In this document: piece by piece, positions 26,881-58,071 of the stretch
Layout of the letters: the number at the start of each line of letters is the position of its first letter
How positions within the stretch are numbered: the first letter of the stretch is position 1
Assembly: GCA_964632135.1 (NCBI GenBank)
Contig: CAZWEI010000001.1
Span: forward strand, 29,883 to 93,882
Direction: 5' to 3'
Source: Candidatus Micrarchaeota archaeon
GTDB taxonomy: Archaea > Micrarchaeota > Micrarchaeia > Burarchaeales > JBFMAP01
DNA: 64,000 bases
Translations under genes and position numbers: made by a program
Notes under the pieces: generated by a model
What the model was told of the DNA's origin: nothing
Databases searched by the model: none
What the model saw: the letters and a program-made list of their open reading frames with translations, nothing else

Positions 26881-26893
26881 AATCCATCTGCTC

Positions 26894-28841: not shown

Positions 28842-28856
28842 CGCGCTGCACCCCGT

Positions 28857-42224: not shown

Positions 42225-43676
42225 TCACGCTACCTCGCTCTCGTCTGATTTCCTGCGCTTTGCCCCGTAGTCGCTCATTCCCGCGCGCCACCACGAGTCG
42301 TACCTCTCGCTCACCTGCTCCTCTATGCTCCTTCCGCGCTTGAGCGCCGCGCGCACGTGCTTCTCGTCTATCAACTCGCTGCCATCCGTGACCGCGAGGT
42401 CGCCTGCCAACTTTATTATCCCGCTGAGGTCCCGCAGGCGCAGCGTGAGGCCGACGACGTCGTCTATGGATTTTGCGCGCGCCCTCGCCTCGTCAAGAAG
42501 CACGGCAACTGCCTTCGAGTTTGCGTGTGGAATCCTTCCATCTTTCCTTATCTCCTGCGCGATGAACTGCACGAGTTTTTTCCTGTTCTCATCAGTGTCG
42601 GGCATCGTGGTGCCCAGCAGCACCTCGTATCCGTTGCCCAGTATGCGCGAGCGCAGGGGTGGGAGGAGATGATCCATGTCATTCGTGTTGAGCGCGCCTA
42701 TGAGTATGAAGTCGCACGGCACGTTGTCAACGCGTATTGATGCGCCTGTGCTCGATGCGTTGCGCCCGGCAATCGGGAATTTCTTCTCCTGCATGGCTGT
42801 CAGAAGATATCTCTGCAAATATCCAAGCGTCGCTATCTCATCAATAAATAAAACGCCCTCGTGCGCCTCGTGAATCGCGCCCGGCACCACGCGCAAGTAA
42901 GCGGCCATTCCAATCTCCGGATGACCGCCGTATGGATCGTGCTTCACATCGCCGACAAGTTCGGTCTCGCTCGCGCCCGTCGCCTGAATGAACGTGTTTC
43001 GCTGAAGAGGAAGAATTATTTTGCGCGGGCGCTTTGATTCTATTTCTTCAATTTTCCGCAAAGATGACTGGTCATAGATGCGAATCTTTCCCTCCTCGTC
43101 GCGCTCGTAAAGAACGACCTCCTCGCGCCCGTCCGGGAATGCGCGCGTCGTGTGAACGCGGTCCTCCCTCACCTCGCCCATGAACCCGAAAATCAAATCG
43201 TCAAATGGGGACAACTCGCGGCGGTATTTATCCGCCCCGCACTTTGGGCAGACCGGCGTGTTGAAGTTGCTGAGGTTCCCGCACCTTTTGCACCTGAACC
43301 CGAGCCTCTCGGCGACGAACGACGGAACCTCGGAAGCGGAAAGCATCTTGCCCTCGAATTCCTTCGGCTTCCTATCCTTCACTATTTTCTCGCGGTCGCG
43401 CACCTCAATCACTGGCCGCTCTGGGTTTTCCGGATTGTGGAGAACGGAGACCTCCTGCGTCGGCTGCGGGAGTATGAATGCAATCGCCTGCGCGAGCATG
43501 CTCTTCCCTGTGCCCGGAGGGCCGACGAGAAGGAGATGACGGCGCTGCCTCGCGACCACGCGCGCTATCTTAACTACCTCGTCCTGCCCGATTATCATTT
43601 CTAGAGGATTTTTAGGCAGAATGATTTCCCGCGTGCTCTCGAAATCGAGGAAGCCGGCGCGCGCGTCTGGTTCCAT
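42225..43676 (-). CDS. LonB-type AAA+ ATPase without the protease domain; a zinc ribbon replaces the LonB membrane anchor
   Basis: QDEVVKIARVVARQRRHLLLVGPPGTGKSMLAQAIAFILP closely matches the archaeal LonB N-terminus. A CKRCGN...CPKCG insert sits between Walker A and B. Sensor-2-like RLRDLSGIIKLAGDLA...KHV is present. The protein ends there, with no Ser-Lys protease domain. Confidence 0.65.
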   Translation of the reverse strand: MEPDARAGFLDFESTREIILPKNPLEMIIGQDEVVKIARVVARQRRHLLLVGPPGTGKSMLAQAIAFILPQPTQEVSVLHNPENPERPVIEVRDREKIVKDRKPKEFEGKMLSASEVPSFVAERLGFRCKRCGNLSNFNTPVCPKCGADKYRRELSPFDDLIFGFMGEVREDRVHTTRAFPDGREEVVLYERDEEGKIRIYDQSSLRKIEEIESKRPRKIILPLQRNTFIQATGASETELVGDVKHDPYGGHPEIGMAAYLRVVPGAIHEAHEGVLFIDEIATLGYLQRYLLTAMQEKKFPIAGRNASSTGASIRVDNVPCDFILIGALNTNDMDHLLPPLRSRILGNGYEVLLGTTMPDTDENRKKLVQFIAQEIRKDGRIPHANSKAVAVLLDEARARAKSIDDVVGLTLRLRDLSGIIKLAGDLAVTDGSELIDEKHVRAALKRGRSIEEQVSERYDSWWRAGMSDYGAKRRKSDESEVA

Positions 43677-43722
43677 GTGAATAGTTCAGCACAAAAATTT
43701 TATATATTTTTGGAAATGCTCG

Positions 43723-46143
43723 CTACTGTAATAAAAGGCATTTTCCCTCACCTAAGTTACAATCTGAGTAGCAGCAGTCCCAATCATCGCTACAATCTCC
43801 TCCATCGGGAACACACGCAACACCACCACATATACCGCTAGTGCATGATACGCCAGGGCAACAGTCGCTATCCTGAGTGCACTCTTCGCCGTTAATTCGA
43901 CATGACTTACATTTGTAACCTGTAGTATCGCAATAGCCCGCATATTGGACGTCCTGAATGTCGTCGTAGGATCCGCAGCATTGGTACACCCCTATTTCAC
44001 CAAACAATATGCGCTCTTGCTCCAGGGTAAAAGAGGATGCGGCGCCGCGCTGGTCCTTAGGCGTAAACAGCATAACTCCTGTGCCTGGACCTTTGGATAG
44101 CCCAACTTGACAATTGGAGCCTGTAGCAACACAATACGCGCATGTGTTGTTGGTACCGTAACAAAACGCTCCATCCTCGTGATAGCAACACTCATCACTG
44201 GTTGCACACATTCTGCCTAATGCCGTGCATTCCGGGCAGATATTGGCTGCGTCACACGTAACGGCGGGGTTGCAGCAGTCCCTGTATTTTTCACCGGTTC
44301 CACTGTCAACACCACAACCCCAATAACCCGTAAGAGTGCAGTTCTGGCACGTTCCTTCGTAGCAAGCCGCGTCGTATCCATAGCCCATCGTATTTTCATT
44401 ATAACCGCAGCAGTCCTCGTTTTGCGTGCAGCTCTCGGTCAAGGCGCTGCATAATGGCGGAATGTAGCGGCACGTGCAGTCCGTCGCGTTTACCGCCCAG
44501 TTTATGGGACATGTTACGCCGGAGCAGTCGCACTGGCAGTTACTGTCGTTGCGCTTTCCGCCCGCTGTTTCGTTGCAGGAGTTCTGGCAGTCGCATGAGC
44601 AGTCGGTAGTGAGGTGTATGGGTTGGTTGTTGCACATCGTTTCTGAAATCTGCTGCTGTCTTGCGGGGTCGCCGCAGTTGCACGCGCAGTCCATGTTGTA
44701 CGTGCCTCCGTGGCAGTCGTTTGAGCAGTGGCAGACGCAGTACTCGTCAAGAGCCCCGCCAAACGCGCACGTCGCATTCGTGCAGTCGCAGGTGCAGTCA
44801 GGATAAGGCGCCTGCTGCTCGCCGTTGCAGCTCCAGTAACAAGACGAGGACGAGTATGAACAACCCCATCCCTCCTTGCAGCAAAGCCCGTTTGGATTGC
44901 AGTAAAAGCCAGTGCAGCATGTTTCGTTGTCGCTTTCGTTGTAAGGACCTACTTTGCAATTTGACGGGTGGTGCGTGCATATGGATTTGGGGAATTTGAA
45001 TTCGCATCGTTCGGTCGTGGAGTTGCAGGTATAGCCTGGGCAGCACGGGGCAGAGGAATTGCAGGGCAATGGATTTGCGCAATGAACGCAAGTCCCATGG
45101 GAATCAGTGCAGCAGTTTTGAGTACTGTTCCAAACCGAACCGTACGGACAGCAACTAGACGTAGGGCAGGTTGCTGGATATGCTACGGGATCGCATGTTC
45201 TTTCCGCCGGGCATGCAAAAACGCACACCCCGGCGCTGTTGGTACAGCATTTCTGGGTCGCATTCCAAACAGCGCCGGCTGGACAGCAGCCCGAGGAGGG
45301 GCAGGTTATCGGATAGAGCATATGGCTGCACATTCTTTTTGCAGGGCATGACGGAGTTGTTGCGCATTCCCCGGTGCCGTCTAAGCAGCAGGGTTCAGGG
45401 GAGGAACCGCTGGCACCCCAACTGGTGCCGGACGGACAGCAGCCTGAGGATGGGCACGTCGCGGGATTAGCCGCTGGATTACACGTTCTTTCTATTGGGC
45501 AGAAAGAAACGCAAACTCCGGCGCTGTTTGTGCAGCAGTTTTGCGTTGTGTTCCAAATTGTGCCGACAGGGCAGCAATCCGTCGCGGGGCATGTTGCGGG
45601 GTGAGCGGAATGGCTGCACTCTCTCGCTGTCGGGCATATGAATAGGCACGTTCCGAAGTTGTCAAGGCAGCAATTTTGTGTATTATTCCAAACCGTAAAT
45701 TTTGGACAACAGCCGGAGGATGGACAAGTTTCAGGGTATGCCGACGGATTGCACCGCATGTCAGGCAGACAAAGAGATGAAATGCATTTCATTTGATGGC
45801 AAACAGAATCAGGACAGCATGCGTATGGATCTCCTTGAGGCACGCCAACTTTGCATTTGGGCGGATTTGAACAAGAGATGTAGGCGCATATTCCGTATTT
45901 GTCAGTGCAGCAGTTCTGAACAGTGTCCCAAACCGTGTTTGTAGGGCAGCATCCTGATGGAGGACACACCGCGGGGTATGCCGATGGGTCGCATTGCCGA
46001 GCAGTTGGACAAGTTGGCTTGACCGGAACAACCCCGCTTGTTTTGCATAGGAGCGCGATTAGGAGAAGCAGGATCATGCCTCCTACAAGAACCCCGAGTT
46101 TCTCTTGCGGTGAAGAGCCGGGACGGGCAGGCATTGGTTCCAT
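43723..46143 (-). CDS. 806-aa secreted or anchored Cys-rich tandem-repeat glycoprotein
   Basis: N-terminal signal/anchor; at least six ~45-aa repeats of the form C..A.P..CP.SGCCP.G..WN.TQNCCT.S.G.CV (visible also as ~135-bp DNA repeats); about 110 Cys in total; many N-x-S/T sequons. Confidence 0.55.
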   Translation of the reverse strand: MEPMPARPGSSPQEKLGVLVGGMILLLLIALLCKTSGVVPVKPTCPTARQCDPSAYPAVCPPSGCCPTNTVWDTVQNCCTDKYGICAYISCSNPPKCKVGVPQGDPYACCPDSVCHQMKCISSLCLPDMRCNPSAYPETCPSSGCCPKFTVWNNTQNCCLDNFGTCLFICPTARECSHSAHPATCPATDCCPVGTIWNTTQNCCTNSAGVCVSFCPIERTCNPAANPATCPSSGCCPSGTSWGASGSSPEPCCLDGTGECATTPSCPAKRMCSHMLYPITCPSSGCCPAGAVWNATQKCCTNSAGVCVFACPAERTCDPVAYPATCPTSSCCPYGSVWNSTQNCCTDSHGTCVHCANPLPCNSSAPCCPGYTCNSTTERCEFKFPKSICTHHPSNCKVGPYNESDNETCCTGFYCNPNGLCCKEGWGCSYSSSSCYWSCNGEQQAPYPDCTCDCTNATCAFGGALDEYCVCHCSNDCHGGTYNMDCACNCGDPARQQQISETMCNNQPIHLTTDCSCDCQNSCNETAGGKRNDSNCQCDCSGVTCPINWAVNATDCTCRYIPPLCSALTESCTQNEDCCGYNENTMGYGYDAACYEGTCQNCTLTGYWGCGVDSGTGEKYRDCCNPAVTCDAANICPECTALGRMCATSDECCYHEDGAFCYGTNNTCAYCVATGSNCQVGLSKGPGTGVMLFTPKDQRGAASSFTLEQERILFGEIGVYQCCGSYDDIQDVQYAGYCDTTGYKCKSCRINGEECTQDSDCCPGVSCTSGICGGVACVPDGGDCSDDWDCCYSDCNLGEGKCLLLQ
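45100..46020. repeat. tandem ~135-bp coding repeats (Cys-rich module array)
   Basis: Repeated DNA segments such as ...gcaaactccggcgctgtttgtgcagcagttttgcgttgtgttccaaa... and ...gcacaccccggcgctgttggtacagcatttctgggtcgcattccaaa.... Confidence 0.6.
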
Positions 46144-46187
46144 ACGGTTTACAACCCCGAGTGTTTATCTTTTTATTTGTTTATAAA

Positions 46188-49100
46188 CTATTCGGCGCGG
46201 CATTTGTACTCATCGTACAACTGCATTATGCGCGAGGGATCGCACATCGTGCTGTTCGTCTCGTTTGCAGCGCACATCGTCATCGTCAATCCTTGCGAGC
46301 GGTAGTAATAGTCCGCGCATCCCTTGAACCATTCCTCGAATCCCTCCTTGCGCGCGTAAGCAGGCGGACCGGTGGTCAAACCGTAATTACCCGTGAGCGG
46401 CTGGCACGTGCCGTCCATCAGGCAGTATTGCGCGATTCCGGAAATCCCGGCGCCTGTGAGTTGGTATGTTTCTTTTTCGTACATTTCCGCGAACGCAGCG
46501 CCGACGCCTTTTCCGGCGCACGCGCCGACGCCCACGCCTTCCAGATTATAGGAGAGAATAACTGTCGGCTTTGTGTAATTGTACACCACGAACCTCGAAA
46601 GATTTTTAATCTCGTCCCACGCCCTGCTCGCGTTGCACACGCATTCTCCTCCTGTCTCCTCGCATATTGAACTCGTGTTCGCGAAAACGATGAAACCCAC
46701 CATGTCGGTGCTGTTGCGCGCGAGCCGCATTATGTTTTGTATATCAGCCTCTGTCGCGCCTGGAAGCCTGACCGCGAAAGTGGTCGTGCAGTTCGCGCAC
46801 TCTTTCGTGATGTTTTTCAATTGGTCCGCGATGCAGTTTTGATTTGAAAGGGGGATGGAGATGTCCTGCGTGAGAAGCGTGGGCCACGAGGGGCCGAACG
46901 GGTTGTATTTTTTGTAGTAGAACTTGTCCCAGAAAGGAGTCATGTACTCTGGATTGTTGTCAAGATAACTGTTCAGTTTTTGCGCGAGAGGAACAACGTC
47001 CGCCCCTGAGCAGGCGCCAGGGGCAAGAGTGATGAGGAGCGAGAGGCCGGTCGAGACGTCTGTTATTGTTATATCTACGGACGGCATCGTAATGCACTGC
47101 GTCTCGTTCGGCGCGAGGGAAATTAACGCAGGTAGCGGGGGCGGATTTGGCGCGAGCGAAAGTTGGTGGTTCCTGTTGTCCAGATTGTAGAAGCATATCC
47201 GCGTCCCTTCTTTCGCGCTCATATTCATCGAAGGCTCGAAGAGTTGGTCGATTATCGGGACCACGATGTCGTACGTGTAACTGACTATCCCCTCGCGGTT
47301 GTTGCTCACGCAGTCGATGAGCGTGTGCCTTCCCACATCTGGCGACCAGCAGTACGGGCTCGTCTGGTTTATGGTCGGGAGCAGGCTCGCGTTGTAGCCC
47401 CCTCCTGGACGCTCCTGGATGAGAAGGAGCCTGTACCCCCCTGCGTATGCGCCGCTCGCATTCCAGCAGACCGTGCTGCCCGGCGAAGTTGTCACGACCT
47501 CCTGCGAGAAGTTCATCTCAGCGAGGGAAACCTCTCTCGTGCCGCCGACAATCGGCATAGTCACATCAACGGTCATGCAGCCCATCTGGCTGCTGTCAAA
47601 GGTTGAAGGACAACTCACCTCAGGGACGTACAGCGTCATTCTTGTCGGCGGGGTTACGTCGCATATTCTTAAACTATAATCGCCTCCTCCGACATCCTCG
47701 AGTTGTATTTTCACTGCCGAGCGCGCGGGAACAACTACGTTTGGCGGCGAGACAGGAACGACCCACGCGTACTGGCCGGCAGGAAGGCCGGTGAAGCAAA
47801 CGCTATCATCCTCGTGCACGGATAGAGTGCTCCACGGGGACGGGCTGGTCAGATCCGGATCGTTCATATCTATGTCCGCGCCATAGTAGAATGTTTCCGT
47901 GGAGGAGCGTTTGCAGGTGGAAATACTTACGTGCGTGGCGAAGGTGAGCGCGATCGGGAAGGTCATGTTCGCGCCCGCAGCAAGGTGGTATTCCACGCCA
48001 TTGAGCGAGAACCATCTCGCATACGCGCCGCCGTTGTTGATAATTTTTGGAATCACCCTGCTGTAGCGCACCCCTTTATCAAGCATCGAATAGGAGCACC
48101 AGCAGAGATTCCACACGTTCTGGTCAGTGCAGTTGTCATAAACCCAGTCGCCGCAAAAGTCATCTATGCATTTGTCAAACGGCTGCTGCAGGGTGAGGTT
48201 GATCGCCGAGGTATCGGTGAACTCGCTTGAGTTCAGAACGTTCATATTGAATTTCTTGTGATCGCCAAAAATATCGCGGTAATAGACTTCATACGAGCCG
48301 ACCGGGAAGTTGAAGCACTGGCCGTTGCTGAATCTGAAGCCATTGAAGAAATTGTAATCTATCGAAAGGACTCTGTCCTTGTACCCGCGGTTTTTGAAGT
48401 AGAGCTCGTTATTGTTTGTCGTGAGCGTTGAGGGAGTGAACGGGGCGAATGTGAGGCTTATGATCGCGCTCAGGTTTTGGACATCTACAGTATATCTGCG
48501 CGCGGACACGTCGTCTTCGAGCACGTACGAGCCAGCAGAGATGTTTGAGACGTTGCGCGTTCCGCCTGGCGGGAGGGTTAGCGACCCTAGCCACGAGCCG
48601 CTCTGCGCGAGAGTGTGGCTCAAGCGGTCGATGTTCCTCCAGGAGACGTTGCTTCCCGCGGGCACGCCGTAATATTCATCGAGCAGCAGGCCGGAAATAT
48701 CAACGCGCATGGTCTCATCCGCGCCCCCGCTGTTGAAAACGAGCGCGGTCAGGACATCCTGATTCAGGAGGTCTTTCAGGTTCATCAGCGTGACAGTCCC
48801 TATGTCCCCGAAAACATCCTGGACCGCGAGCCCGAGGCTCAAATTCGATTCGGTCGCAGGGCCGATGAAATAAACGTCCTGCGAGAACGCCTTCGACTCC
48901 TGGATGATGAGCGTGCTCGTCGCGTTCGCGGTCGCATTGTCTGTTGCATTTATTGGATATTCGTACTCGTAGTAGAACTGCCTCACGCCTACTGTGGAGG
49001 GTACTGAAGACTCGAGGTCCCAGAAAATTCGCTGGTTCGGACTTACGGTCTGCCCGGTCCAAAAGTCCATTGGAACGTCCACTGTTCTGGTGCGCGCGAA

Positions 49101-51854
49101 CAACGTGTGATTGACATTATCCGCGTTTTCCCAATAAACCGTTTCATTGTTGTATACGTAAATCAGATTCGGATAGGTTCCTGCCGAGGTCATGAAAAAC
49201 TTCTTCTCCTGCGAACTCGTGATGATGAGCGTGTGGTTCTGGGTGATGTTCTCGGAACGCACGACATAATCGTAGTAGTAATGAATCCCCGCTGCGACCG
49301 AAGTGCAAATCACGCGCTCTGGCAGCACTATGCCGATTGACGTGATGTTGTGCTCGACATCATCCGAGTTTATGAGGCAGATGCTGCCGCCCGGAGGAAC
49401 GCTCACGTAATTCGGCGACGGACCGAGCATCGTGAGGTTTATGTTCGTAGGAAGCGTGGGGCTTACCGTTATAGTCGCGTTTGTTCGCGTGACATTGTCC
49501 CGAACACCATAAATTTGCAGGGACTCGTTGATGAGTGTAAAGCAGACCCTGCTCTTCGCGAGAACATCGAAAACAGCAGGAAGAGGCGGCAGGAAATTTG
49601 AAGTGAGGCGCCTGTCAAGCCTGCCCGGGTTTATGAAGCACAGTGTTGTATTTGAAACAAGCGCGAGATTGGAAGGCTTGAACGCAGGGTCCTGCAACCT
49701 GACCGTATATTCGGACGTTTTGCCCGTGACGTAGACGGTCACGAACGGCGGGGTGGAGATCGTTATGTTTAAGTAATAGCCCCTGGTTCCGCCGCCGGCG
49801 CAGGATACCGTCGCGTTTATGTCGATTATGTTGTACGCCCCGCGCTGATAGTTTGGAAGCTGGAATCCGCCCATCCAATTCTGTGAGCCGCAGACACAAA
49901 TGTTGTCATCCATCTGCGGACCGGCGGGCTGGCGGTTGATTAGCGTGTTCCCGCAATCGCTTATCAAGAACCCGCTCACGAGCACGCTCATCGCTTCAGG
50001 GGGGACGTATAAATTCAGCCTGTAGGACGCTGTCCCGCTCACGTCAGTTTCGTATTGCTGGAAAGAGAGCGCGGTGCTGTTCGTGCCCGCTGCATTGATG
50101 TCGTAGAAAATGTATGTTCCAGGCGTCCTGTCCTCATATGCACCGGAATACTGGTTGAGGAAAGACGCGCGCGACTGCCAGCAGCACGAGGAGCTGTTGG
50201 ACACTGAATGGATTTCTTTCGGCACAAGCATCTCGCCTTCAAGTTTGTACACGTGCAGGGTGTGCGATTTGCTCGCGTCGGTGTTGTTGAAGCAGACGTC
50301 GTCTCCCCATATTATTCCGACCTCCTCTGGGTTCGGGCCGCCTGCCGCAAGCTCGACCTTGTTGTTGATGCTCTTAACGAATATTGAGCCGTATGTGTCC
50401 GTGTTTATGTCGCGGAAAGCGTGTGGTCCTAGTTTTTTCATCGCGCCAGGCGGAAGTGTCAGGGTTCCGCCTGCGAGTACTGTTTGGGTTATGTCAGGCG
50501 TGGGCTCGGTGTCGTCTCCGAACCATAGTTCTATAATGTGGGCCTCCTCTGCGTTGTTTCGTATCGAGATGTTCTGCCCCTCTGAAACGACAAGGTCTGC
50601 GGGCATGAACGAGTCAGCATCGAGGTAGATGAAGCCTTCTGAACTTATCGCGAGCGTCGATTCGAGTCCTGTTTTTGCGTCAGTAACCGTGTATTCTTCG
50701 GCAGGCGGCGGGGAGAAGGTGTGGTTTAGCGTGAAGTTCGATGAGCACGTGAGCGCGCTCACGTTGAGATTTTCCTTCGGGCGCGGTCCTGAGAACGCGA
50801 GGGTGTGAACCGGTATCGTCGAGTTCGCGACGTTGTCCCAGCAGATGAGCGAGCCGTCCGTTATCGTTATTTCATCAGGCTCGAAAAGCGGGTCGCCGAC
50901 AGTCATCTCCGAAACTTTTTCAAGTTTCGGCTTGCAGTATTCCCTCGCGCTGAGGAAATCGTTGAAACTCGGGCCCTGGCCGAGCATGAAGTACTGGAGT
51001 TCCTTGAAAGGGTCGCGCGTAATCGCGTACAACTCGTTCGCCCCGCATGGAATTTCTGTGAGGAGAAGACCGCCCTGCAGAGTCGCCTCGTAGTGCACTG
51101 CGCACGAGCCCCAGAACGTGCGCGTCCCAGCCCGGTCGTTGCATTCGTACGCGACCTGCGCAGAATAACCGGACAGACATTCCGCGGTGCACCCGCTGGT
51201 CGTAACCGAGGTGGGGGGCAGTACGACCATGCAGCCGTAGCCGACGCACGGGGGCTTGTAAATTCTGTATGTATACGAAACTCCAAGATGCGTAACTGTC
51301 ACATCCTCATATTCGCACGTGCAACCGTTCGGGCTCTGGTCGGGTACAAGAGGACAGCAGTAATAATGCGCGCAGTGGGAGGAGTGGTGGGCCCAACTGC
51401 AGCAAAGGAAGCAGCCTCCGCACGCGCAGCCGTGAACCTCCCAGCCCAAGAAATCCATCGTGCCGATGCCCCCGCAGTTGCAGCAGTCGTCGCACGTCAT
51501 CCTCGTCCATTTTCCGGCATCGTTGCAGGAGTCATACGCGAAACAAGCATACATCGGCGCGCCCGTTGTCCTTATGTCCTTGCAGCTGTCGCCCCATTTC
51601 GTGTTGAACTCGCGCGGATCGAGCCCCTGCCCCTTGCTGGTGTATCCTCCGCTGCATTCCCAGCGCGTGTAGAGGGGCCTCTTCGCCCTCACCTGGCACA
51701 TGCACGTGGCGTTCTCGCACGAGGAGGTCGCCTCGATTCTGACCTCAATCGTGCTCGGCACGCTTGTGCGCGGCGTCATGTAAAGGCATCCGAACAAGAA
51801 TAGGAACACAAACGCGAGGCTGAAAAAAACCAATGGTGAGATTTCCCTTTTCAT
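46188..51854 (-). CDS. 1888-aa giant secreted surface (glyco)protein with lipobox-like signal peptide
   Basis: N-terminal FLFLFGC signal; a Cys-rich N-terminal ~250 aa; a long region with dozens of N-x-S/T sequons; no C-terminal TM anchor. The + frame is unbroken for 5.6 kb. Confidence 0.6.
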   Translation of the reverse strand: MKREISPLVFFSLAFVFLFLFGCLYMTPRTSVPSTIEVRIEATSSCENATCMCQVRAKRPLYTRWECSGGYTSKGQGLDPREFNTKWGDSCKDIRTTGAPMYACFAYDSCNDAGKWTRMTCDDCCNCGGIGTMDFLGWEVHGCACGGCFLCCSWAHHSSHCAHYYCCPLVPDQSPNGCTCEYEDVTVTHLGVSYTYRIYKPPCVGYGCMVVLPPTSVTTSGCTAECLSGYSAQVAYECNDRAGTRTFWGSCAVHYEATLQGGLLLTEIPCGANELYAITRDPFKELQYFMLGQGPSFNDFLSAREYCKPKLEKVSEMTVGDPLFEPDEITITDGSLICWDNVANSTIPVHTLAFSGPRPKENLNVSALTCSSNFTLNHTFSPPPAEEYTVTDAKTGLESTLAISSEGFIYLDADSFMPADLVVSEGQNISIRNNAEEAHIIELWFGDDTEPTPDITQTVLAGGTLTLPPGAMKKLGPHAFRDINTDTYGSIFVKSINNKVELAAGGPNPEEVGIIWGDDVCFNNTDASKSHTLHVYKLEGEMLVPKEIHSVSNSSSCCWQSRASFLNQYSGAYEDRTPGTYIFYDINAAGTNSTALSFQQYETDVSGTASYRLNLYVPPEAMSVLVSGFLISDCGNTLINRQPAGPQMDDNICVCGSQNWMGGFQLPNYQRGAYNIIDINATVSCAGGGTRGYYLNITISTPPFVTVYVTGKTSEYTVRLQDPAFKPSNLALVSNTTLCFINPGRLDRRLTSNFLPPLPAVFDVLAKSRVCFTLINESLQIYGVRDNVTRTNATITVSPTLPTNINLTMLGPSPNYVSVPPGGSICLINSDDVEHNITSIGIVLPERVICTSVAAGIHYYYDYVVRSENITQNHTLIITSSQEKKFFMTSAGTYPNLIYVYNNETVYWENADNVNHTLFARTRTVDVPMDFWTGQTVSPNQRIFWDLESSVPSTVGVRQFYYEYEYPINATDNATANATSTLIIQESKAFSQDVYFIGPATESNLSLGLAVQDVFGDIGTVTLMNLKDLLNQDVLTALVFNSGGADETMRVDISGLLLDEYYGVPAGSNVSWRNIDRLSHTLAQSGSWLGSLTLPPGGTRNVSNISAGSYVLEDDVSARRYTVDVQNLSAIISLTFAPFTPSTLTTNNNELYFKNRGYKDRVLSIDYNFFNGFRFSNGQCFNFPVGSYEVYYRDIFGDHKKFNMNVLNSSEFTDTSAINLTLQQPFDKCIDDFCGDWVYDNCTDQNVWNLCWCSYSMLDKGVRYSRVIPKIINNGGAYARWFSLNGVEYHLAAGANMTFPIALTFATHVSISTCKRSSTETFYYGADIDMNDPDLTSPSPWSTLSVHEDDSVCFTGLPAGQYAWVVPVSPPNVVVPARSAVKIQLEDVGGGDYSLRICDVTPPTRMTLYVPEVSCPSTFDSSQMGCMTVDVTMPIVGGTREVSLAEMNFSQEVVTTSPGSTVCWNASGAYAGGYRLLLIQERPGGGYNASLLPTINQTSPYCWSPDVGRHTLIDCVSNNREGIVSYTYDIVVPIIDQLFEPSMNMSAKEGTRICFYNLDNRNHQLSLAPNPPPLPALISLAPNETQCITMPSVDITITDVSTGLSLLITLAPGACSGADVVPLAQKLNSYLDNNPEYMTPFWDKFYYKKYNPFGPSWPTLLTQDISIPLSNQNCIADQLKNITKECANCTTTFAVRLPGATEADIQNIMRLARNSTDMVGFIVFANTSSICEETGGECVCNASRAWDEIKNLSRFVVYNYTKPTVILSYNLEGVGVGACAGKGVGAAFAEMYEKETYQLTGAGISGIAQYCLMDGTCQPLTGNYGLTTGPPAYARKEGFEEWFKGCADYYYRSQGLTMTMCAANETNSTMCDPSRIMQLYDEYKCRAE

Positions 51855-51863: not shown

Positions 51864-52601
51864 TCATTTGTTATTGAAACTCAGCAACTCCATGCTCCCG
51901 CCGCCGCCCTCGGCGGTGGAAACTATTTTTACTGGCACTGGGACTCCGTCGGCAATCCAGACTGTGCTCGCCTCCTCTGGAAGCGAATACACGCTCGTGT
52001 TGAAAACGCCGGCGGGAACGCGCACCTCCTCGTGCCTGAGCAGTTTCGCGCCCGCGAGGTTTTCCTTGCACATCACGCCGGGTATGCCGGATACGTCGGC
52101 GCAATCAGCCTCTGTGGTGAAAGGCTGGCCCCCTGCGAAGCTCATCGAGATTTCAAGCTTTTTGCACTTGAGCGTGTTTTTCTCGAGCCACATCAGACTA
52201 TTCATGCTCGCGCTCTGCCCCTGAACCGAAGCGTTCGTTGAAATCTCGACCTTGTACGTGTCGGTCCCGTCCACGAGTTCGGTTCCTATATAATTGTACG
52301 ATGTGCGCGCCTCCTGCGTGCCTCCATATTGGCTGTCCGCCGAAACCTTGTAGGCATACGAGAACTCGGGGGTCATGTTGAACAGCGGGGTGCAGTTCAT
52401 GGGCTCGGCGCGCGGCTTTTGAGTTCCGTTCTCCGAGAGGTTTCCCACGGAGAAAACTGAAAAATTCTCACCTGCACTCGGCATCGGAGGCGGCGTATAC
52501 GAGAGCGATGAGATGAGAACCAGTATCACCCCCAGAATTATTATCGCGAGAACCGTCATCTGCGCAACAACGCTCATGTTTCTCTGAACCAGTTTTTTCA
52601 C
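51864..52601 (-). CDS. N-terminally anchored hypothetical protein (operon member)
   Basis: MKKLVQRNMSVVAQMTVLAIIILGVILVLI anchor, then an extracellular domain with sequons and a C-terminal GGGGS. Confidence 0.4.
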   Translation of the reverse strand: MKKLVQRNMSVVAQMTVLAIIILGVILVLISSLSYTPPPMPSAGENFSVFSVGNLSENGTQKPRAEPMNCTPLFNMTPEFSYAYKVSADSQYGGTQEARTSYNYIGTELVDGTDTYKVEISTNASVQGQSASMNSLMWLEKNTLKCKKLEISMSFAGGQPFTTEADCADVSGIPGVMCKENLAGAKLLRHEEVRVPAGVFNTSVYSLPEEASTVWIADGVPVPVKIVSTAEGGGGSMELLSFNNK

Positions 52602-52615
52602 ATCAACACCTTCGC

Positions 52616-53641
52616 TTACAATATTTTAAATAAACTCCTGCCCATCTCGGAAACGTCCGCGCCAAGGACAGGCGCGATCGCGCGCACGAACGCGAACGTG
52701 ACCACGAGCACGACAATGGGGTAGAAGAACGCGTAGACTATCATGCTCACCGTCTGGCCCCCGAGGCCGGACGAGCCCATCGCCGCCTCTGCCTGCGCGA
52801 CCTTTATCAGCGTCGCGAACGCGGCTGGGTCGTTCGCGCATATGTTCGTGCTCATCGTTATCTGCGGGGCCTGGCATCCGGATGGCGGGGAGCCGGAACT
52901 CATCAGAATCACTACGAACATGAGCGGATATACGATGTAAAGGCCGATGGCGAGCGCGATCATGAGCGCGCCTGCGCCGCGCGTGTACGGGAATATTCGA
53001 AGTATGATTCCTATCGGCAGATAAACCGTGAACATCGCGGTCTCAACCCACTGGAGGAGGTTGTACTGGAAGTAGAGCGCGAGCGCGAGCCACGTGAGGC
53101 TGTTCGCCTTGTAGTGCGCCTCCACGATCATGCTGTACAGCGGATACGAGAACCATTTGAAAGGAATCGGAATCCGGAGTATGAACGGCGAGACGATGAT
53201 GTCGCTCGCGAGAAGCCGCTCTATCCCCGGCTTGTACGTCTCCTTGTATTTCGACTCGACGCACTTGAGCATCGCGCGCAAATATACATAACTCGCGTCG
53301 AACGGGCTCACCTTCGCGAGCCCCGCCATGCCCGGCACGACTATGCTGCCTGCGAAAATCTCCGTCTGATTTTGGATGAGGCCGACGCCGTAGGATTCGC
53401 CTGAAACTATTGTGAAAAGAAGGACCACGAGAATAATTGAAGCAAGCACCTGCGCTAGTTCGCTCTTCACCCATCTCCTGAGGTCCGGAAGCTCGAAAAA
53501 TTTCGAGAGCATGTACGCGAGCGCGACTATGAAAATCTGTATCATTATCGCGAGGAGCGCGATCGCAATCCAGCTCGCGTCGCCCAGGACGGTTTTTCCA
53601 AGGTCAGCCGCAGTCGTGTTCCACATAACATCATCTTTCAA
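52616..53641 (-). CDS. polytopic membrane protein, paralog family (NE[LIF]YQ / LPIG-LR-FP-TR / C-terminal LGxDVxI motifs), member 1
   Basis: VKSELAQV; YLPIGIILRIFPYTRGAGALMIALAIGLYIVYPL; C-terminal PVLGADVSEMGRSLFKIL. Confidence 0.55.
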   Translation of the reverse strand: MKDDVMWNTTAADLGKTVLGDASWIAIALLAIMIQIFIVALAYMLSKFFELPDLRRWVKSELAQVLASIILVVLLFTIVSGESYGVGLIQNQTEIFAGSIVVPGMAGLAKVSPFDASYVYLRAMLKCVESKYKETYKPGIERLLASDIIVSPFILRIPIPFKWFSYPLYSMIVEAHYKANSLTWLALALYFQYNLLQWVETAMFTVYLPIGIILRIFPYTRGAGALMIALAIGLYIVYPLMFVVILMSSGSPPSGCQAPQITMSTNICANDPAAFATLIKVAQAEAAMGSSGLGGQTVSMIVYAFFYPIVVLVVTFAFVRAIAPVLGADVSEMGRSLFKIL

Positions 53642-53665
53642 TCATATCCGATCATTGTCTTTATA

Positions 53666-54652
53666 TCACACCATCCTCGTCAGCGTCGTGATGTCGACCT
53701 CCTCGCCAAGCGCGCGGGAGAGGTCGCGCACGACCGCTATTATTATTATACTATTTATGGCAGGAAGCAGGAACGCCGCGAAAATCACCGTCGCGATTTG
53801 CGATATCGCCCTGCTCAGGAAGAAATCGGCGATCAGCGATTCGATCGTGAAAACGGCGACCATTATGTTTCCTGTGACCGCGGAGACCGCGATTGATGGA
53901 ATGCTTGACTTCAGCGCCTCAAGGACGTCCCTCCAGACGGACACGCTCTCTACGCTCGTGGGCTGCCCGAGCACGACGAAATTCAGCATGAGCATGAACG
54001 GATACGCGACGAACAGGCCGATCGCGATTGCCATGAGCGCGCCGCCGAACTTCCGCGTGATTGGGAACGAGCGGCACACCACGCCGATTGGAAGGAGGAT
54101 GCTGAGCATCCCCACGTTTATTATTTTCAGCACGACAATCTGCGCGATGGTCACGAGAAGGCATATCGCCACCGCATTCACGAGGAAATTCAGTATGGTC
54201 ATTAGCGCGCTGAGCCCTGCGAAAGGCGACATTATCACCGTGACGAATGTGATTGGGAGTCCGCCGGTAAACGAGGAGAGCATCATAACTATGTTCGACA
54301 TCCCGAGAACTCCTCCGAGAACGACCGCGGTCTTGTCCCTGAGCCAGAGCAGAAAGAACTCCGCGACGTCAAACATGTTCCCGCCAACGTTCAGCCCGAA
54401 ATCGGAGAAGTTGAGCGAGCACAGCGTCGTGACGAGGAGTATGATGGACGCGAGGAAGAGCGCGGTTATGAAAACCTGGTAGAGTTCATTCTTTGCGCGC
54501 GCAACAAGCCAGGGGTTTCCCATGTACGTGCCTATCATGTAGAGCAGGGAGATTACGAAATAGGACGTGAGGATGCCTATCAAACTCAGCCCCTGCCAGC
54601 TGCCAAGCCAGTCACTGGGCGACACGCACGCGTTCGGCATTGCCATTTTCAC
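53666..54652 (-). CDS. polytopic membrane protein, same paralog family, member 2
   Basis: AKNELYQV; LLPIGVVCRSFPITRKFGGALMAIAIGLFVAYPF; C-terminal RALGEEVDITTLTRMV. Confidence 0.55.
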   Translation of the reverse strand: MKMAMPNACVSPSDWLGSWQGLSLIGILTSYFVISLLYMIGTYMGNPWLVARAKNELYQVFITALFLASIILLVTTLCSLNFSDFGLNVGGNMFDVAEFFLLWLRDKTAVVLGGVLGMSNIVMMLSSFTGGLPITFVTVIMSPFAGLSALMTILNFLVNAVAICLLVTIAQIVVLKIINVGMLSILLPIGVVCRSFPITRKFGGALMAIAIGLFVAYPFMLMLNFVVLGQPTSVESVSVWRDVLEALKSSIPSIAVSAVTGNIMVAVFTIESLIADFFLSRAISQIATVIFAAFLLPAINSIIIIAVVRDLSRALGEEVDITTLTRMV

Positions 54653-54694
54653 ACCATTCCAATCAATTCAATCAAATTCAATCGAAATCAATCA

Positions 54695-55780
54695 TCAGAT
54701 TATTTTCACGAGCGAGGTGAAATCGATCTCCGCGCCCAGGAGGGACGCGAGGGACCTCGTGAACATTATCGTGGCGATGAGGCACATAAGCGGCAGCAGC
54801 ACCGCAGCGACGACGGACATGTAGAGCATCGGCCCGAAATCCCCCTCGTAAGTCATTTCCTTCACGAACTCCGAGGGCGCGCTCCCTCCCCTGTTGAACA
54901 TGTCGTCGATTATGTCGCGCGCGTTCCCCGCCATCGCGAGCGTGAGGCTGCCACTGCATTTGTAGGTGTTGCAGTGGTCGCGGACTATCTGCTCGGACGC
55001 GAGATACGTGAGCGGAAGAACGATGTAGAAACCAATCGAAATCGCGATGAACGCGCCGCCTGCCATCCTCGTGAACGGGAACGCGCGCAGCGCAATCCCC
55101 ACAGGAAGGAAGAACGCGAACATGTAATCGCGCGCGAACTCGAGGAGCATCTCCTGCGCGCGCAACTGTATTATCGAAAGCGAGAGGATGGAGAGCGCGT
55201 AACCGAACATGTCCATGACGGGCCTGAACGCCGCGCCGGGCACAATATCAAACGTGAGCGCCTGCTTTATGTCGAACATCAGCGTCATCGAGGCGATTGC
55301 ACCCGCGAGTATGTCGAAGTGAATCATCGTCTTCACGTAGCCTGTTATCTGCTCCCGGAGGGCGCGCGCATATGCGACGGCGTGGTTCTGGAGCGCGTTC
55401 CAGTCGCCCGCGCACGAGAACGAGGAGTATGTGTAAGTGCCGGTGCCATTCAAGAAATTTGTGCTGCAGAACGCGGGGAACAGCATGGTGTTCAGGTACC
55501 AGTCCGCGGAGATGAGCATCCCGAGCATGAACGCCGTCGCCGCTAGTTGGTAGAACTCGTTGCGCGCGAACGAGATGAGGTTGTTCGAATTCACTCCGGT
55601 GCCCACCGCGTATATGAGCGCCATCACCGTGAGCATGGTGAGCAGGACTATGAGCGTCACTGTCTGCCATCTCTGGCACCAGACGGACGTGCAGTCCGCA
55701 CGAACAAGCGTTGAGAGCAGCACTAACGCGACGAAGGCGAGCAGAATTTTTCTTGCGTTCTTCATTGCCGGTTTTTTCAT
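54695..55780 (-). CDS. polytopic membrane protein, same paralog family, member 3 (Cys-containing N-terminal extension)
   Basis: ARNEFYQL; FLPVGIALRAFPFTRMAGGAFIAISIGFYIVLPL; C-terminal SLLGAEIDFTSLVKII. Confidence 0.55.
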   Translation of the reverse strand: MKKPAMKNARKILLAFVALVLLSTLVRADCTSVWCQRWQTVTLIVLLTMLTVMALIYAVGTGVNSNNLISFARNEFYQLAATAFMLGMLISADWYLNTMLFPAFCSTNFLNGTGTYTYSSFSCAGDWNALQNHAVAYARALREQITGYVKTMIHFDILAGAIASMTLMFDIKQALTFDIVPGAAFRPVMDMFGYALSILSLSIIQLRAQEMLLEFARDYMFAFFLPVGIALRAFPFTRMAGGAFIAISIGFYIVLPLTYLASEQIVRDHCNTYKCSGSLTLAMAGNARDIIDDMFNRGGSAPSEFVKEMTYEGDFGPMLYMSVVAAVLLPLMCLIATIMFTRSLASLLGAEIDFTSLVKII

Positions 55781-55788
55781 TTCTACAC

Positions 55789-57135
55789 CTACAGCAATCT
55801 CGTGAGCCCTGCTATCTCGACATCCCCGCCGAGCGCAGGCGAGAGCGCCTTTATGAACGCGAGCGTTATGAAAATGTTCAGAAGCGGGAGCGCGACAGCA
55901 GGTATCATCAGCATCGCCGTCGTGTCGAGAACGCCAATTGAGGACATTCCTGTGATTGGATCAATTGCGGGCATCCCTGTTACGGGATCGTACTGCGTGA
56001 AAAGCACCTTTGCAAAATCGCTCGACGACGGGGTTAGGTCGTGCGTGAAAAGGATGAGGTCCTTTGGCTGCGGGGTTCCGTGCGGAATAAGGTCTGTGTT
56101 GAGTTTTGGAAGAACAGGGATGACATCGACAGTGTACCAGCCGAGAACGTACAGCAGCGGGAAAATGGAGTAGAGACCGAGCGCTATCGCGAGCATCAGC
56201 CCGCCGAGTTTGCGCGTGAACCACAGCGTCCTCAGAATCAAGCCAGCCACGAGAAATATCGGGAAAACGCCGTTTTGTATGTAGAGCAGAACCTGCTCCT
56301 GGAACTTCACGCTCAGCATCGCCTTTGCCATGAAGTCCGCGGCTGTCCCGAGTTGCTCGTATAGTACGCCATAGCCCGCGAACGGCGCGATGTCGAACTT
56401 CAGCGAGAAAGGCAGGCCGAGTATGTTTATGTAAAACCCGAAATGCATCGTCTCGACGAACACGAGCTCCGCGTACATCTTCACGGTCGCGCGCGCCTGC
56501 TGTGCTATCTGCTCGTACGTGCGGCCGAGGAATGCGCGCGCGAGGTAGAAGTGGCAGGGATATGTGCAGGTTATCGTGCCGCCCTGGACCGCCTCCCATC
56601 TCCCTGCGCCCTTTCCCGCGCCCGCGCCGGTCTCGCGATAGCGATAGGTGTATGCCGTCGCATTTGGTATTATCACCCACGTCCCTGTTGCATTGGACGC
56701 GCTCCAGCCCGTCTGGCTCCCGAGTATTTTCGCGCCGAACTCCTGCGAAACCGATTCGAGAAGCGGGACGAACACGACGAACGCGCCGAAAAGTATCGCG
56801 GACACGAACGCCTGGTAAATCTCGTTCTTGATGAGCGTTTCCAAATCCCGCAACTGGAACGCGCGCGCGACCATCCACGCGGATATGAGCGCGAAGACCG
56901 CGATGATTATCACGAGCCCGCCGGCGGACTGCCACGTCCCGCCCCATCTCTGCCAAAGGCTCATCGGCGTGGGCCTGCACACGCACCCGCCGGTTGTTGG
57001 TATGCATTCGCCGGAGCAACAGGTGCAGGGCGCGATGGTGCATAACTCGCCTGTTCTCGTGCATCCAGGAGTCGTGCATCCGAACATCAGCAACAGGAGG
57101 ATTGCAAGCGAGACAATCGCCAGCGTTACTCTCAT
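55789..57135 (-). CDS. polytopic membrane protein, same paralog family, member 4 (lipobox-like signal plus Cys-rich N-terminal ectodomain)
   Basis: LLLMFGCTTPGCTRTGELCTIAPCTCCSGEC...; IKNEIYQA; FLVAGLILRTLWFTRKLGGLMLAIALGLYSIFPL; C-terminal PALGGDVEIAGLTRLL. Confidence 0.55.
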   Translation of the reverse strand: MRVTLAIVSLAILLLLMFGCTTPGCTRTGELCTIAPCTCCSGECIPTTGGCVCRPTPMSLWQRWGGTWQSAGGLVIIIAVFALISAWMVARAFQLRDLETLIKNEIYQAFVSAILFGAFVVFVPLLESVSQEFGAKILGSQTGWSASNATGTWVIIPNATAYTYRYRETGAGAGKGAGRWEAVQGGTITCTYPCHFYLARAFLGRTYEQIAQQARATVKMYAELVFVETMHFGFYINILGLPFSLKFDIAPFAGYGVLYEQLGTAADFMAKAMLSVKFQEQVLLYIQNGVFPIFLVAGLILRTLWFTRKLGGLMLAIALGLYSIFPLLYVLGWYTVDVIPVLPKLNTDLIPHGTPQPKDLILFTHDLTPSSSDFAKVLFTQYDPVTGMPAIDPITGMSSIGVLDTTAMLMIPAVALPLLNIFITLAFIKALSPALGGDVEIAGLTRLL

Positions 57136-57141
57136 TCAAGC

Positions 57142-58050
57142 TCACTCCATCAGTTGATAATCATACGTGAATACTGTCACGAGCACACGAATAAACGTGA
57201 TTGTGATTATGAGGTTGAGCGCGGGAAGAAAGACGGCCTGCGGGAGCATCATCCCGATCGTCTGGAACGTGTTGCACACTGTCCCGTGCCCCATCTCCGA
57301 GAAGACGTCGGAGAGCCCGCTCCTCCCGGAACTGCACCACTCCGTGAAACTCCTGTCCAGGCTCACCTCCTCCATCACCTTCATATCGAAAACGTACGTG
57401 AGCGGGAAGACGATGAAAAACCCTATTGCTATCGCCATAAGGTACGCGCCTGCCTCGCGCATGAACGGGACTGTCCTCAAAATGAAGCCTATCGGCAATA
57501 GGAATATGAAGAACGTGTCCTTCACGAACGAGAGGAAAAGTTTCTGGAAAAGAAGGCTCGCCGAAATGGGCGTTACGAGAAACGCGAGGGTCTCGAAAAG
57601 GTAACTCGCCGTGCCGTAGCCTGCGAGTGGAGAGAAGCAGAACAGACCCGTGCAGCTCGGAATCGCAATGCTGAACGCGGCCTTTCTCTGCGCGCTCAGG
57701 CTCATGTCAAACAGGGACTGGACAGCAGGCACCATCTTGCCCCATATCAACCCGTGGAGGTATTTGTCAGAGACCTTGAAGGGGTCTGCGCCTGCCACTC
57801 CCTGTGAAATATCGCATGAGAGCAACGCGAACGAGATGACGCCGCCTATAAGTATGCACGCGACTATCGTCTGGTAGAGTTCGCCCTTCGCCCAGAACTC
57901 CCAATCGGTGCGGCGCGTGAACTGGGAAATCATGTACACGAGCGCGACCAGGAAGAACGAGATGAGAAGGGCTAGCGCCATGAACGGAACCCAGTTCCAA
58001 TAGTCCGACTGGAATGTGCAGTAGTACGTTAGCGCAGCCATTTGGGACAC
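57142..58050 (-). CDS. polytopic membrane protein, same paralog family, member 5 (lacks the shared C-terminal motif)
   Basis: AKGELYQT; LLPIGFILRTVPFMREAGAYLMAIAIGFFIVFPL; ends ...VFTYDYQLME, six nt before the next gene. Confidence 0.5.
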   Translation of the reverse strand: MSQMAALTYYCTFQSDYWNWVPFMALALLISFFLVALVYMISQFTRRTDWEFWAKGELYQTIVACILIGGVISFALLSCDISQGVAGADPFKVSDKYLHGLIWGKMVPAVQSLFDMSLSAQRKAAFSIAIPSCTGLFCFSPLAGYGTASYLFETLAFLVTPISASLLFQKLFLSFVKDTFFIFLLPIGFILRTVPFMREAGAYLMAIAIGFFIVFPLTYVFDMKVMEEVSLDRSFTEWCSSGRSGLSDVFSEMGHGTVCNTFQTIGMMLPQAVFLPALNLIITITFIRVLVTVFTYDYQLME

Positions 58051-58071
58051 CTGTGCACACAGCTCATAATT

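Follow-up and report, generated by a model that had tools for sequence, protein, structure and literature searches.

The subject of this analysis is a gene on the minus strand (positions 43723–46143) of a 64,000-nucleotide (nt) stretch of DNA from a Candidatus Micrarchaeota archaeon (GenBank assembly GCA_964632135.1, contig CAZWEI010000001.1, positions 29,883–93,882), hereafter called the window. The gene encodes a very cysteine-rich protein of 806 amino acids (aa), identical to the database protein P0001, and on balance its sequence favors the reading that the product would be a membrane-anchored or exported, disulfide-stapled, and glycosylated stalk or adhesin of the envelope of Micrarchaeota, a DPANN lineage of tiny symbionts. 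The 806-aa open reading frame (ORF) had been pointed out in an earlier note made from the sequence alone; it was recovered at the same position by ORF listing, without a rival ORF of more than 127 aa in the same place. When the gene was compared with that of its ortholog P0002, the dN/dS ratio over the whole gene was 0.16 (Nei–Gojobori method), and it is therefore a constrained coding sequence, that is, a real gene under purifying selection. It evolves approximately four times faster than the adjacent ATPase gene (dN of 0.18 vs. 0.04).

The product contains 129 Cys residues, so the earlier note was right to call it Cys-rich but undercounted these residues at about 110. Cys accounts for 16.0% of the protein. 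The other plausible ORFs of the window, 43 in number, have a mean of 1.8%, and the richest among them has 5.5%. The protein is abundant in Gly, Thr, Ser, Pro, and Asn, with many Pro and Gly accompanying 56 aromatic residues, and it contains 12 His, 22 CC doublets, 11 CxC motifs, and 5 CxxC motifs. The ectodomain is acidic, with a calculated isoelectric point (pI) of 4.46. From the N-terminus to the C-terminus, the gene is laid out as follows, where a sequon is the tripeptide N-x-S/T and the W-modules are the repeated units described below.

43723–46143, minus strand: Cys-rich coding sequence, 806 aa (ORF listing and composition)
46039–46143, minus strand: putative N-terminal anchor (aa 1–35), consisting of a short tail, MEPMPARPGSSPQEKLG, and a hydrophobic segment that ends in a conserved LLC (Kyte–Doolittle)
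45877–46011, minus strand: W-module 1 (aa 45–89), with 8 Cys and WDTV at the sequon position
45772–45876, minus strand: linker (aa 90–124), with 6 Cys arranged as C-x5-C-x11-CC-x4-C-x4-C, a knottin-like spacing read from the sequence
45079–45771, minus strand: W-modules 2–6 in tandem (aa 125–355), with 8 Cys each and sequons at N153, N198, N294, and N339
44824–45081, minus strand: knottin-pattern units (aa 355–440), with C-C-CC-C-C at aa 355–380 and 410–435 (regular expression)
44455–44823, minus strand: CxCxC region (aa 441–563), with five D/N-C-x-C-x-C units (aa 450–545) and 22 Cys, 85% identical to P0002
44104–44454, minus strand: knottin-pattern units (aa 564–680), at aa 565–599 and 639–668, with conservation falling from aa 637
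43984–44103, minus strand: the only Cys-free stretch (aa 681–720), 33 of whose 40 aa are missing from P0002
43726–43983, minus strand: C-terminal tip (aa 721–806), with a tandem double knottin-pattern unit at aa 748–772 and 777–802

The modules were located with the regular expression CCP-x(5)-W-x(5-9)-CC, which gave six instances, and these were then extended to whole units of approximately 45 aa (aa 45–89, 125–169, 170–214, 215–263, 266–310, and 311–355). Together they occupy positions 45079–46011, in agreement with the repeat span of 45100–46020 given in the earlier note. That note had also described at least six tandem modules with 6–8 Cys each. There are indeed six modules, but only modules 2–6 run head to tail, module 1 being set apart by the 35-aa, 6-Cys linker, and the number of Cys is eight in every one of them. 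The spacing of these Cys is C-x5-C-x8-C-x4-CC-x11-CC-x6-C, which includes two CC doublets, and the eight Cys, together with P23 and W28, were invariant over 16 modules from three proteins. Module 4 is an insertion variant, WGASGSSPEPCC, which carries WGASGSSPEP where the sequon would stand.

The sole hydrophobic segment of the protein starts at aa 13 in a Kyte–Doolittle scan. P0002 and the window protein agree in all of their first 18 aa, even though synonymous changes have occurred in the DNA, and the pattern GG.ILL.LIA.LC also occurs in the relative P0005 and in a sister subfamily. The segment is predicted to be either a signal-anchor or a signal peptide. Beyond it lie exactly 128 Cys, an even number. 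The one Cys outside this set, Cys33 (46045–46047), directly follows the hydrophobic segment, and the LLC or TMC to which it belongs is conserved in P0002, P0005, P0009, and the proteins of loci L004–L014. Cys33 could be a site of lipid modification, with the LLC read as a lipobox, or be related to cleavage, or simply belong to the helix.

The C-C-CC-C-C spacing typical of knottins recurs in six units of the C-terminal half as well as in the linker at aa 90–124. Identity to P0002 was 64–89% over aa 1–636, 48% over aa 637–680, and 39% over aa 721–806; with Cys left out, the value for this last segment was 23%. The dN value was 0.56 in the tip vs. 0.10–0.13 elsewhere, and the C-terminal 170 aa are the fastest-evolving part of the protein. 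The tip also differs from that of P0002 by several indels, including 33 aa of the Cys-free stretch that are present only in the window protein.

Relatives and age of the module array

Only three proteins were recovered from a set of 5.8 billion clustered proteins: P0001, which is the window protein itself, an NCBI entry from a 138-kb contig; P0002 (781 aa, 70% identical), annotated as 'MAG: hypothetical protein [Candidatus Micrarchaeota archaeon]' and derived from the metagenome-assembled genome (MAG) MAG141; and P0003 (929 aa, 35% identical), from an ENA metagenome. When a profile of these three proteins was searched with HMMER against 1.84 billion representatives, seven proteins matched at E ≤ 1e-3, namely P0002, P0003, P0004 (720 aa), P0005 (428 aa), and three short proteins (P0006–P0008). 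Among these matches, W-modules were found only in P0002–P0005; the three short proteins are probably bacterial, and their similarity is confined to the terminal double knot. Among 185,579 species-representative genomes, a member was found in MAG141 and in a Ca. Micrarchaeum sp. MAG only, the latter encoding a 460-aa protein (L004), and a family-profile search added P0009 (563 aa). In the JGI metagenomes, an alignment of the window type found no loci, and an alignment of the Ca. Micrarchaeum type found 12 loci encoding proteins of 443–740 aa.

We defined the family by three features: an N-terminal tail followed by a hydrophobic segment with LLC at its end; two or more modules of the form CCP-x(4-6)-W-x(5)-CC-x6-C; and a knottin-pattern C-terminus. 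These features are shared by the window protein, P0002–P0005, P0009, the L004 protein, and the L006–L014 proteins, and they are represented in no library searched. The family clusters have a single member each, and all named sources (MAG141 and Ca. Micrarchaeum sp.) are Micrarchaeota. The family is real but rare, and literature searches on cysteine-rich or disulfide proteins of Micrarchaeota or DPANN archaea yielded no account of it. As a side observation, the contig of P0003 also encodes a 395-aa protein with peptidoglycan-binding domains of the PG_binding_1 type (L002, 6102–7289, plus strand), which is unexpected on an archaeal contig and hints at a bacterial host or target, or at an uncertain taxonomy of the contig.

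The earlier note had taken the modules for recent repeats, recognizable at the DNA level and still expanding or contracting. The nucleotide periodicity, for which it had proposed a dot plot, is real: in an autocorrelation of the module region, self-matching at a shift of 135 nt was 0.496, compared with 0.269 ± 0.022 for the in-frame background (z of approximately 10), a shift of 288 nt was also periodic (z of approximately 9.6), and a repeat search returned the same two spacings, 135 and 288 nt, with 61–71% identity over 168 nt. Tandem Repeats Finder, run on positions 43500–46400, reported no module array, only an 8-nt intergenic repeat, because the pairwise nucleotide identity among the modules is only 50–67%. 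When the matches at these shifts were divided by codon position, they reached 0.64–0.73 at positions 1 and 2 but 0.33–0.42 at position 3, close to the background of 0.28. At residues that are identical between modules, the same codon was used in 33–58% of cases, compared with the 43–48% expected from the codon usage of the gene. Because codon sharing is at the chance level and third positions are near the background, the synonymous sites have been randomized. The DNA periodicity is a footprint of amino acid conservation, with no sign of repeat instability, and the modules are not recent.

The comparison with relatives leads to the same view. P0002 also contains six modules, whose order and residue numbers match those of the window protein, at a dS between the two genomes of approximately 0.7–1.1, a distance at which P0002 is the only relative available for comparing copy number. 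Each window module is closest to its positional counterpart in P0002, with amino acid identities of 82–87% for modules 1, 4, 5, and 6 and 64–67% for modules 2 and 3, vs. 44–62% to non-counterpart modules. In a three-way alignment, modules 3–6 also corresponded one to one with those of P0003, including the variant form of module 4 (W-G-A-...-P-x-P/E-CC), which is consequently older than the split from P0003. Given this one-to-one orthology with P0002 and P0003, the array predates both divergences and its module number has remained unchanged. The array is ancient and stable, with no support for a recent gain or loss of modules.

Change of another kind is seen in the sister subfamily from Ca. Micrarchaeum. 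When P0009 (L005, 2364–4055) was compared with the proteins of L006 (1348–2676), L007, and L008, the first ~220 aa and the last ~75 aa were near-identical, but the central ~150–270 aa were non-homologous. In the middle of P0009, a duplicated N-terminal domain is accompanied by W-modules and by knottin-pattern units; the middles of the L006–L008 proteins consist of CP.GQ.C..G.C repeats, which also occur in the L004 protein (9743–11125); L004 and L005 are syntenic. These mosaic genes suggest cassette replacement by recombination. Unlike the sister subfamily with its variable central block, the window protein and P0002 differ mainly at the C-terminus.

These observations bear on the possibility that the protein is a variable surface protein whose module number shifts by ongoing expansion and contraction, giving variation at the strain level. 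The in-frame 135-nt periodicity, the range of 443–740 aa among the sister-subfamily proteins, and the replaced middles between near-identical ends, which indicate that the architecture of the family can change, are what one would cite for it. The codon and orthology analyses contradict it: the modules have diverged to 50–67% identity in their DNA with chance-level codon sharing and near-background third positions, Tandem Repeats Finder found no array, the six modules are orthologous one to one with those of P0002 at a dS of ~1, the variant form of module 4 is older than the divergence from P0003, and the change in the sister subfamily is a replacement of cassettes rather than slippage of near-identical units. 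We regard this explanation as very improbable. The surface variation suggested in the earlier note does have a counterpart in the divergence of the C-terminal tip and in the central replacements of the sister subfamily, but it does not operate through the number of repeats.

Fold, sequons, and alternative functions

The W-module resembles no described domain in the libraries searched. In Pfam, the full protein matched only Toxin_12, below threshold (E = 0.026), and the 185-aa module region alone matched nothing at E ≤ 5, the models for EGF, furin-like, TNFR, granulin, and CBM_14 repeats included. NCBIfam gave no match to the 806-aa protein, and PDB sequences gave none to the full protein (E ≤ 1) or to the 16-module profile (E ≤ 10). 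When the 45-aa profile of the 16 modules was run against the 5.8 billion proteins, nine word candidates were obtained and none scored, this profile being too short for a set of that size. Thus, the familiar repeats that the earlier note had named as possible matches (EGF, furin-like, and TNFR) were not found. AlphaFold2 (AF2) modeled the module from the 16-row alignment with a predicted local distance difference test score (pLDDT) of 69, as a hairpin of short antiparallel strands (residues 27–29 and 34–36), so that the hairpin and its turn contain the Trp and the N/D-x-T. In a two-module construct (pLDDT 63.6), each module was predicted to form such a hairpin, and the second CC was followed by a third strand. 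The prediction was best in the core CCP...W...CC...G.C. The W-module would be a new small disulfide-rich archaeal domain without a described relative.

Another possibility is a lectin-like adhesin, in which the W-modules would be glycan-binding hairpins analogous to CBM14/peritrophin-A or hevein and the invariant Trp would bind host glycans. The only recurring structural neighbors of both AF2 models were CBM14 proteins, the chitin-binding domain (ChBD) of human chitotriosidase (6so0) and Avr4 (4z4a), and the module core CCP.G..W[ND] resembles CP.G..F[ND], which we take to be the hairpin motif of CBM14. The invariance of the Trp would also suit this function, and DPANN archaea must attach to their hosts through recognition molecules that are unknown (PMC11329633). 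These structural matches were non-significant, however, with Foldseek E values of 2.3–4.3, a probability of approximately 0.1, and only ~20 aligned columns on models of moderate confidence, and neither Pfam nor the PDB profile search, at the thresholds given above, connected the module to any such domain. A lectin function therefore seems unlikely.

The abundance of Cys could alternatively be explained by an extracellular metal binder of the metallothionein or multi-metal cluster type, whose Cys would be ligands of thiophilic metals such as Zn, Cu, or Fe rather than partners in disulfides. The 22 CC doublets, 11 CxC motifs, and five D/N-CxCxC units agree with this, and a metal-binding role has been proposed for small domains in archaea that have eight conserved Cys (PMC13607799). 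The context of the genome may be anaerobic, and metal-rich acid mine drainage is a published habitat of some Micrarchaeota. Against this stand the length of 806 aa, the export or anchor sequence, and the enriched sequons, as well as the 56 aromatic residues, since classical metallothioneins have none. Folded disulfide domains would agree with the predicted β-hairpins and with the invariance of Pro, Trp, and Gly; the number of external Cys is exactly even, the knottin-type C-C-CC-C-C spacing recurs, and there are only 12 His and 5 CxxC. We consider metal binding quite improbable.

The C-terminal units gave a few matches of their own. Pfam Dickkopf_N (PF04706) scored 31.8 bits against a cut-off of 25 (E = 1.8e-7), but only when aa 714–806 were scanned alone, the full-length scan being silent on this family, and this match was probably driven by the cysteine pattern. 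In a fragment scan, Toxin_12 scored 20.1 bits against a cut-off of 21, a match listed for the units at aa 355–440, and other toxin families had E values of 0.003–0.04; the last 93 aa scored weakly on several inhibitor cystine knot (ICK) toxin families. Against the PDB, the tip fragment had weak matches (E = 0.04–0.37), which included a spider channel-inhibitor toxin of the ICK type (1koz, 0.04), the double-knot toxin Hi1a, and DKK4 (0.35). The C-terminal units may be called knottin-like by their pattern, with family membership unproven.

This weak likeness to spider ICK toxins, the double-knot Hi1a, and Pfam toxin families, along with the short P0006–P0008 proteins, which are the double-knot unit repeated, could be taken to indicate a polyprotein precursor that is cut into small, secreted, knottin-like peptides, with competitors or the host as the targets of their toxic or antimicrobial action. 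Such processing is hard to reconcile with modules that abut without linkers (C8-x3-C1), with the conserved N-terminal tail and anchor, which argue for a retained membrane protein, and with the order of units kept from end to end in the ortholog. No conserved cleavage motif was noticed in the module alignments, in which no dedicated search for one was made. We attach hardly any weight to the polyprotein explanation and treat it, like the lectin and metal-binding explanations, as a minor possibility.

With regard to glycosylation, the protein contains 14 N-x-S/T sequons vs. 7.7 ± 2.5 in composition shuffles (P = 0.016). The earlier note had placed a sequon at a fixed position after the Trp in every module; this was true of four of the six (modules 2, 3, 5, and 6), and modules 1 and 4 lacked it. 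In the relatives, the position is occupied by D-D-I in P0002 where the window protein has N-N-T (module 2), and by D-E-T in P0003 where it has N-T-T. Of the 52 modules compared, which come from 13 family proteins, 40 (77%) had N or D directly behind the Trp, and a true sequon was present in 15 (29%). A conserved WN.T glycosite was therefore considered and rejected, given the Asp that replaces Asn in module 2 of the ortholog and the low frequency of sequons in the family. The best reading of this position is that it holds a conserved Asx turn residue, which sometimes may also be a glycosite. Glycosylation of the protein as a whole is nevertheless plausible, because its sequons are enriched and because cultivated Micrarchaeota have a glycosylated surface-layer (S-layer) protein and express N-glycosylation genes (bioRxiv 10.1101/2021.04.28.441871).

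Proposed role and gene neighborhood

The genes and elements closest to the Cys-rich gene, all on the minus strand, are as follows.

46188–51854, minus strand: giant neighbor immediately upstream, 1888 aa, with an N-terminal hydrophobic segment, 48 sequons, and 73 Cys
46180–46187, minus strand: TATA-box-like element TTTATAAA, just past the stop codon of the giant gene and ~37–44 nt before the ATG of the Cys-rich gene; found at the same place in MAG141 (L001)
42225–43676, minus strand: LonB-type AAA+ ATPase, 483 aa, covering positions 170–402 of the 608-position LonB model
52616–59826, minus strand: six paralogous membrane proteins of 341, 328, 361, 448, 302, and 584 aa, with 4–9 predicted transmembrane (TM) segments

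The 1888-aa protein has 48 sequons vs. 19.5 expected from composition shuffles, and 29 of its 73 Cys lie in aa 23–270. It carries approximately nine cupredoxin-like motifs (G..v.f.N.D...H.l) at a spacing of 80–92 aa, and weak plastocyanin-type matches were obtained. It may be related to the S-layer protein of Micrarchaeota, since that of Ca. Micrarchaeum harzensis (SLP_Mh) is reported to have a copper-binding-like domain (bioRxiv 10.1101/2021.04.28.441871). A gap of 44 nt separates the giant gene from the Cys-rich gene downstream of it. This adjacency is kept in MAG141, where the gene order is that of the window (giant ORF, Cys-rich ORF, LonB-like AAA+ ATPase, Toprim, CBS, and further genes). 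In the distant, low-GC, Micrarchaeota-like L014, a 732-aa family member is located 26 nt from a convergent ORF of 1949 aa (2262–8111, minus strand), whose C-terminal ~280 aa share homology with the giant protein in colinear order (E = 1e-12 and 6e-8). A functional link with the giant protein is inferred from adjacency only, and its main support is that the adjacency recurs over a deep divergence.

The earlier suggestion of a Cys-rich surface protein is consistent with the N-terminal anchor, the even number of 128 Cys beyond it, the roughly twofold excess of sequons, and the surface-type neighbors. In the stalk or adhesin that we favor, the N-terminal tail and the single hydrophobic helix would hold the protein in the cytoplasmic membrane or direct its export, and the remaining ~770 residues would lie outside the cell as a chain of small cysteine-stapled units. 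Six 8-Cys W-modules, each with a Trp-bearing β-hairpin core, would come first, followed by the knottin-pattern and CxCxC units. If all of the 128 external Cys are paired, 64 disulfides would result, giving an acidic (pI ~4.5), N-glycosylated, protease-resistant stalk. The conserved membrane-proximal modules might then serve as a spacer, and the rapidly diverging C-terminal double-knot tip might be the contact surface. The role of the protein would be structural or adhesive, as a stalk or anchor together with the 1888-aa protein and possibly in touch with a host cell.

Several points weigh against this reading. In the tip, dS is saturated and dN/dS is undefined, and the divergence there could stem from relaxed constraint rather than from selection driven by a partner or host. 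In L004, L005, and L013, the immediate neighbors of the family member are housekeeping genes; in L004 and L013, an ORF of ~1410 aa, which is rich in sequons in L004, is encoded ~1.2 kb upstream. In the window, genes that lie close together in one direction may have separate transcripts, A/T-rich TATA-like elements being present on the minus strand both upstream of the Cys-rich gene (TTTATAAA, within 46144–46187) and upstream of the ATPase gene (AAAATATATAAAAT, within 43682–43722). The Cys-rich gene may thus have its own promoter, and co-transcription with the giant gene is therefore not established. The window encodes 4Fe-4S and CCG-domain proteins, which may indicate an anoxic habitat and make extracellular disulfides less certain, and no thiol-oxidase gene was seen in it. 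Finally, the AF2 models are only moderately confident (pLDDT 64–69).

Upstream of the giant gene, the minus strand continues with a gene for a 245-aa, sequon-rich, single-pass protein and then the tandem genes for the six polytopic paralogs. The paralogs matched one another in pairwise BLASTP with E values of 1e-12 to 1e-29 and share the motif LPIG..LR.FPFTR..GG.LMAIAIG.Y.VYPL. None of the six matched Pfam, the two scanned against NCBIfam gave no match, and the one scanned against PDB sequences likewise gave none. Two of them have Cys-rich, knottin-like N-terminal ectodomains. One tentative and rather unlikely proposal is that the W-module protein, the ~1900-aa cupredoxin-like neighbor, the 245-aa protein, and the six paralogs (51864–59826) constitute an undescribed host-contact apparatus. 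In such an apparatus, the W-modules may form a disulfide-locked stalk, and the double-knot tip, or the swapped cassette in the sister subfamily, may set host specificity. Cryo-electron tomography of a Micrarchaeota co-culture showed S-layers and nanotubes, and the molecules on the symbiont side were not named (PMC11329633).

How DPANN archaea recognize and hold their hosts is an open question, and the Cys-rich gene is a concrete candidate for a part in it. It is restricted to one lineage, lies outside the domain libraries, appears from its sequence to be anchored and extracellular, combines a conserved stalk with a variable tip, and stands beside a giant gene in two deep lineages. Small disulfide-rich domains have also rarely been described from archaea, and the 64 potential disulfides raise the question of how an archaeon with a reduced genome oxidizes exported cysteines.

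Elsewhere in the neighborhood, the LonB-type ATPase has no predicted TM segment and contains a zinc-ribbon-like insertion at aa ~115–153; it is 94% identical and syntenic in MAG141. No paralog of the Cys-rich protein was found in the window. A mobile-element or viral origin of the locus was considered and rejected, in view of the synteny with housekeeping genes in two genomes and the lack of a phage match in tblastn. A separate patch of lower GC content (0.44–0.48 vs. ~0.53 elsewhere in the window) extends over 19798–29582 and is probably an acquired island of restriction–modification genes and mobile elements, with the following ORFs.

19798–20931: TnpB/IS605-type
23080–24372: IS4-type DDE transposase
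25891–26880: C-5 cytosine methyltransferase
26894–28345: Schlafen/AlbA_2 ATPase-like
28857–29582: Eco47II-type restriction endonuclease

Comparison with known systems

The six C-terminal units and the linker share their C-C-CC-C-C spacing with proteins of the knottin and Dickkopf–colipase type. Those families are eukaryotic secreted peptides or domains, whereas here the units would be strung on an archaeal membrane protein. Granulins (epithelins, PF00396) consist of tandem 12-Cys modules with CC doublets and stacked β-hairpins. The W-modules are reminiscent of them in their tandem arrangement of units of ~45–57 aa, paired CC doublets, CCP motif, and predicted short β-hairpins held by Cys, but they have 8 rather than 12 Cys, two rather than four CC doublets, a different spacing, an invariant Trp, and an archaeal host. 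CBM14/peritrophin-A and hevein are likewise small disulfide-rich modules with an aromatic residue on a CP.G..[FW][ND] hairpin; in this case, the W-module differs in having 8 Cys vs. 6 in CBM14, and its structural neighbors of this type were the non-significant ones of ~20 columns described above (E = 2.3–4.3).

At the level of the whole protein, Giardia's variant-specific surface proteins (VSPs) and its high-cysteine membrane proteins are also very Cys-rich, single-pass surface proteins, which are considered to form a protease-resistant coat. VSPs have CXXC motifs, a C-terminal TM segment, and a CRGKA tail, and they vary by switching expression among many paralogs. The surface variation proposed in the earlier note would fit this analogy. 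However, the protein studied here has 5 CxxC in 806 aa, a predicted N-terminal anchor, no paralog in the window, and no sequence similarity to the Giardia proteins.

In gene arrangement, there is a likeness to SlaA and SlaB of the Sulfolobales, where the gene for a very large, sequon-rich surface protein lies beside that for a smaller membrane-anchored protein. SlaB has a C-terminal TM segment and a coiled-coil stalk and is poor in Cys. In the window protein, the putative anchor is N-terminal, no helices of coiled-coil length were predicted in the modules, and there was no Pfam or NCBIfam match, so the comparison is one of analogy only, not of homology. The study of SLP_Mh raised the idea that SLP_Mh may require a second protein as a membrane-anchored stalk, and it also noted that S-layer proteins are typically almost devoid of sulfur amino acids (bioRxiv 10.1101/2021.04.28.441871). 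Modular, disulfide-rich surface proteins are known in kind, and what would be new here is an undescribed 8-Cys module carried by an orphan protein.

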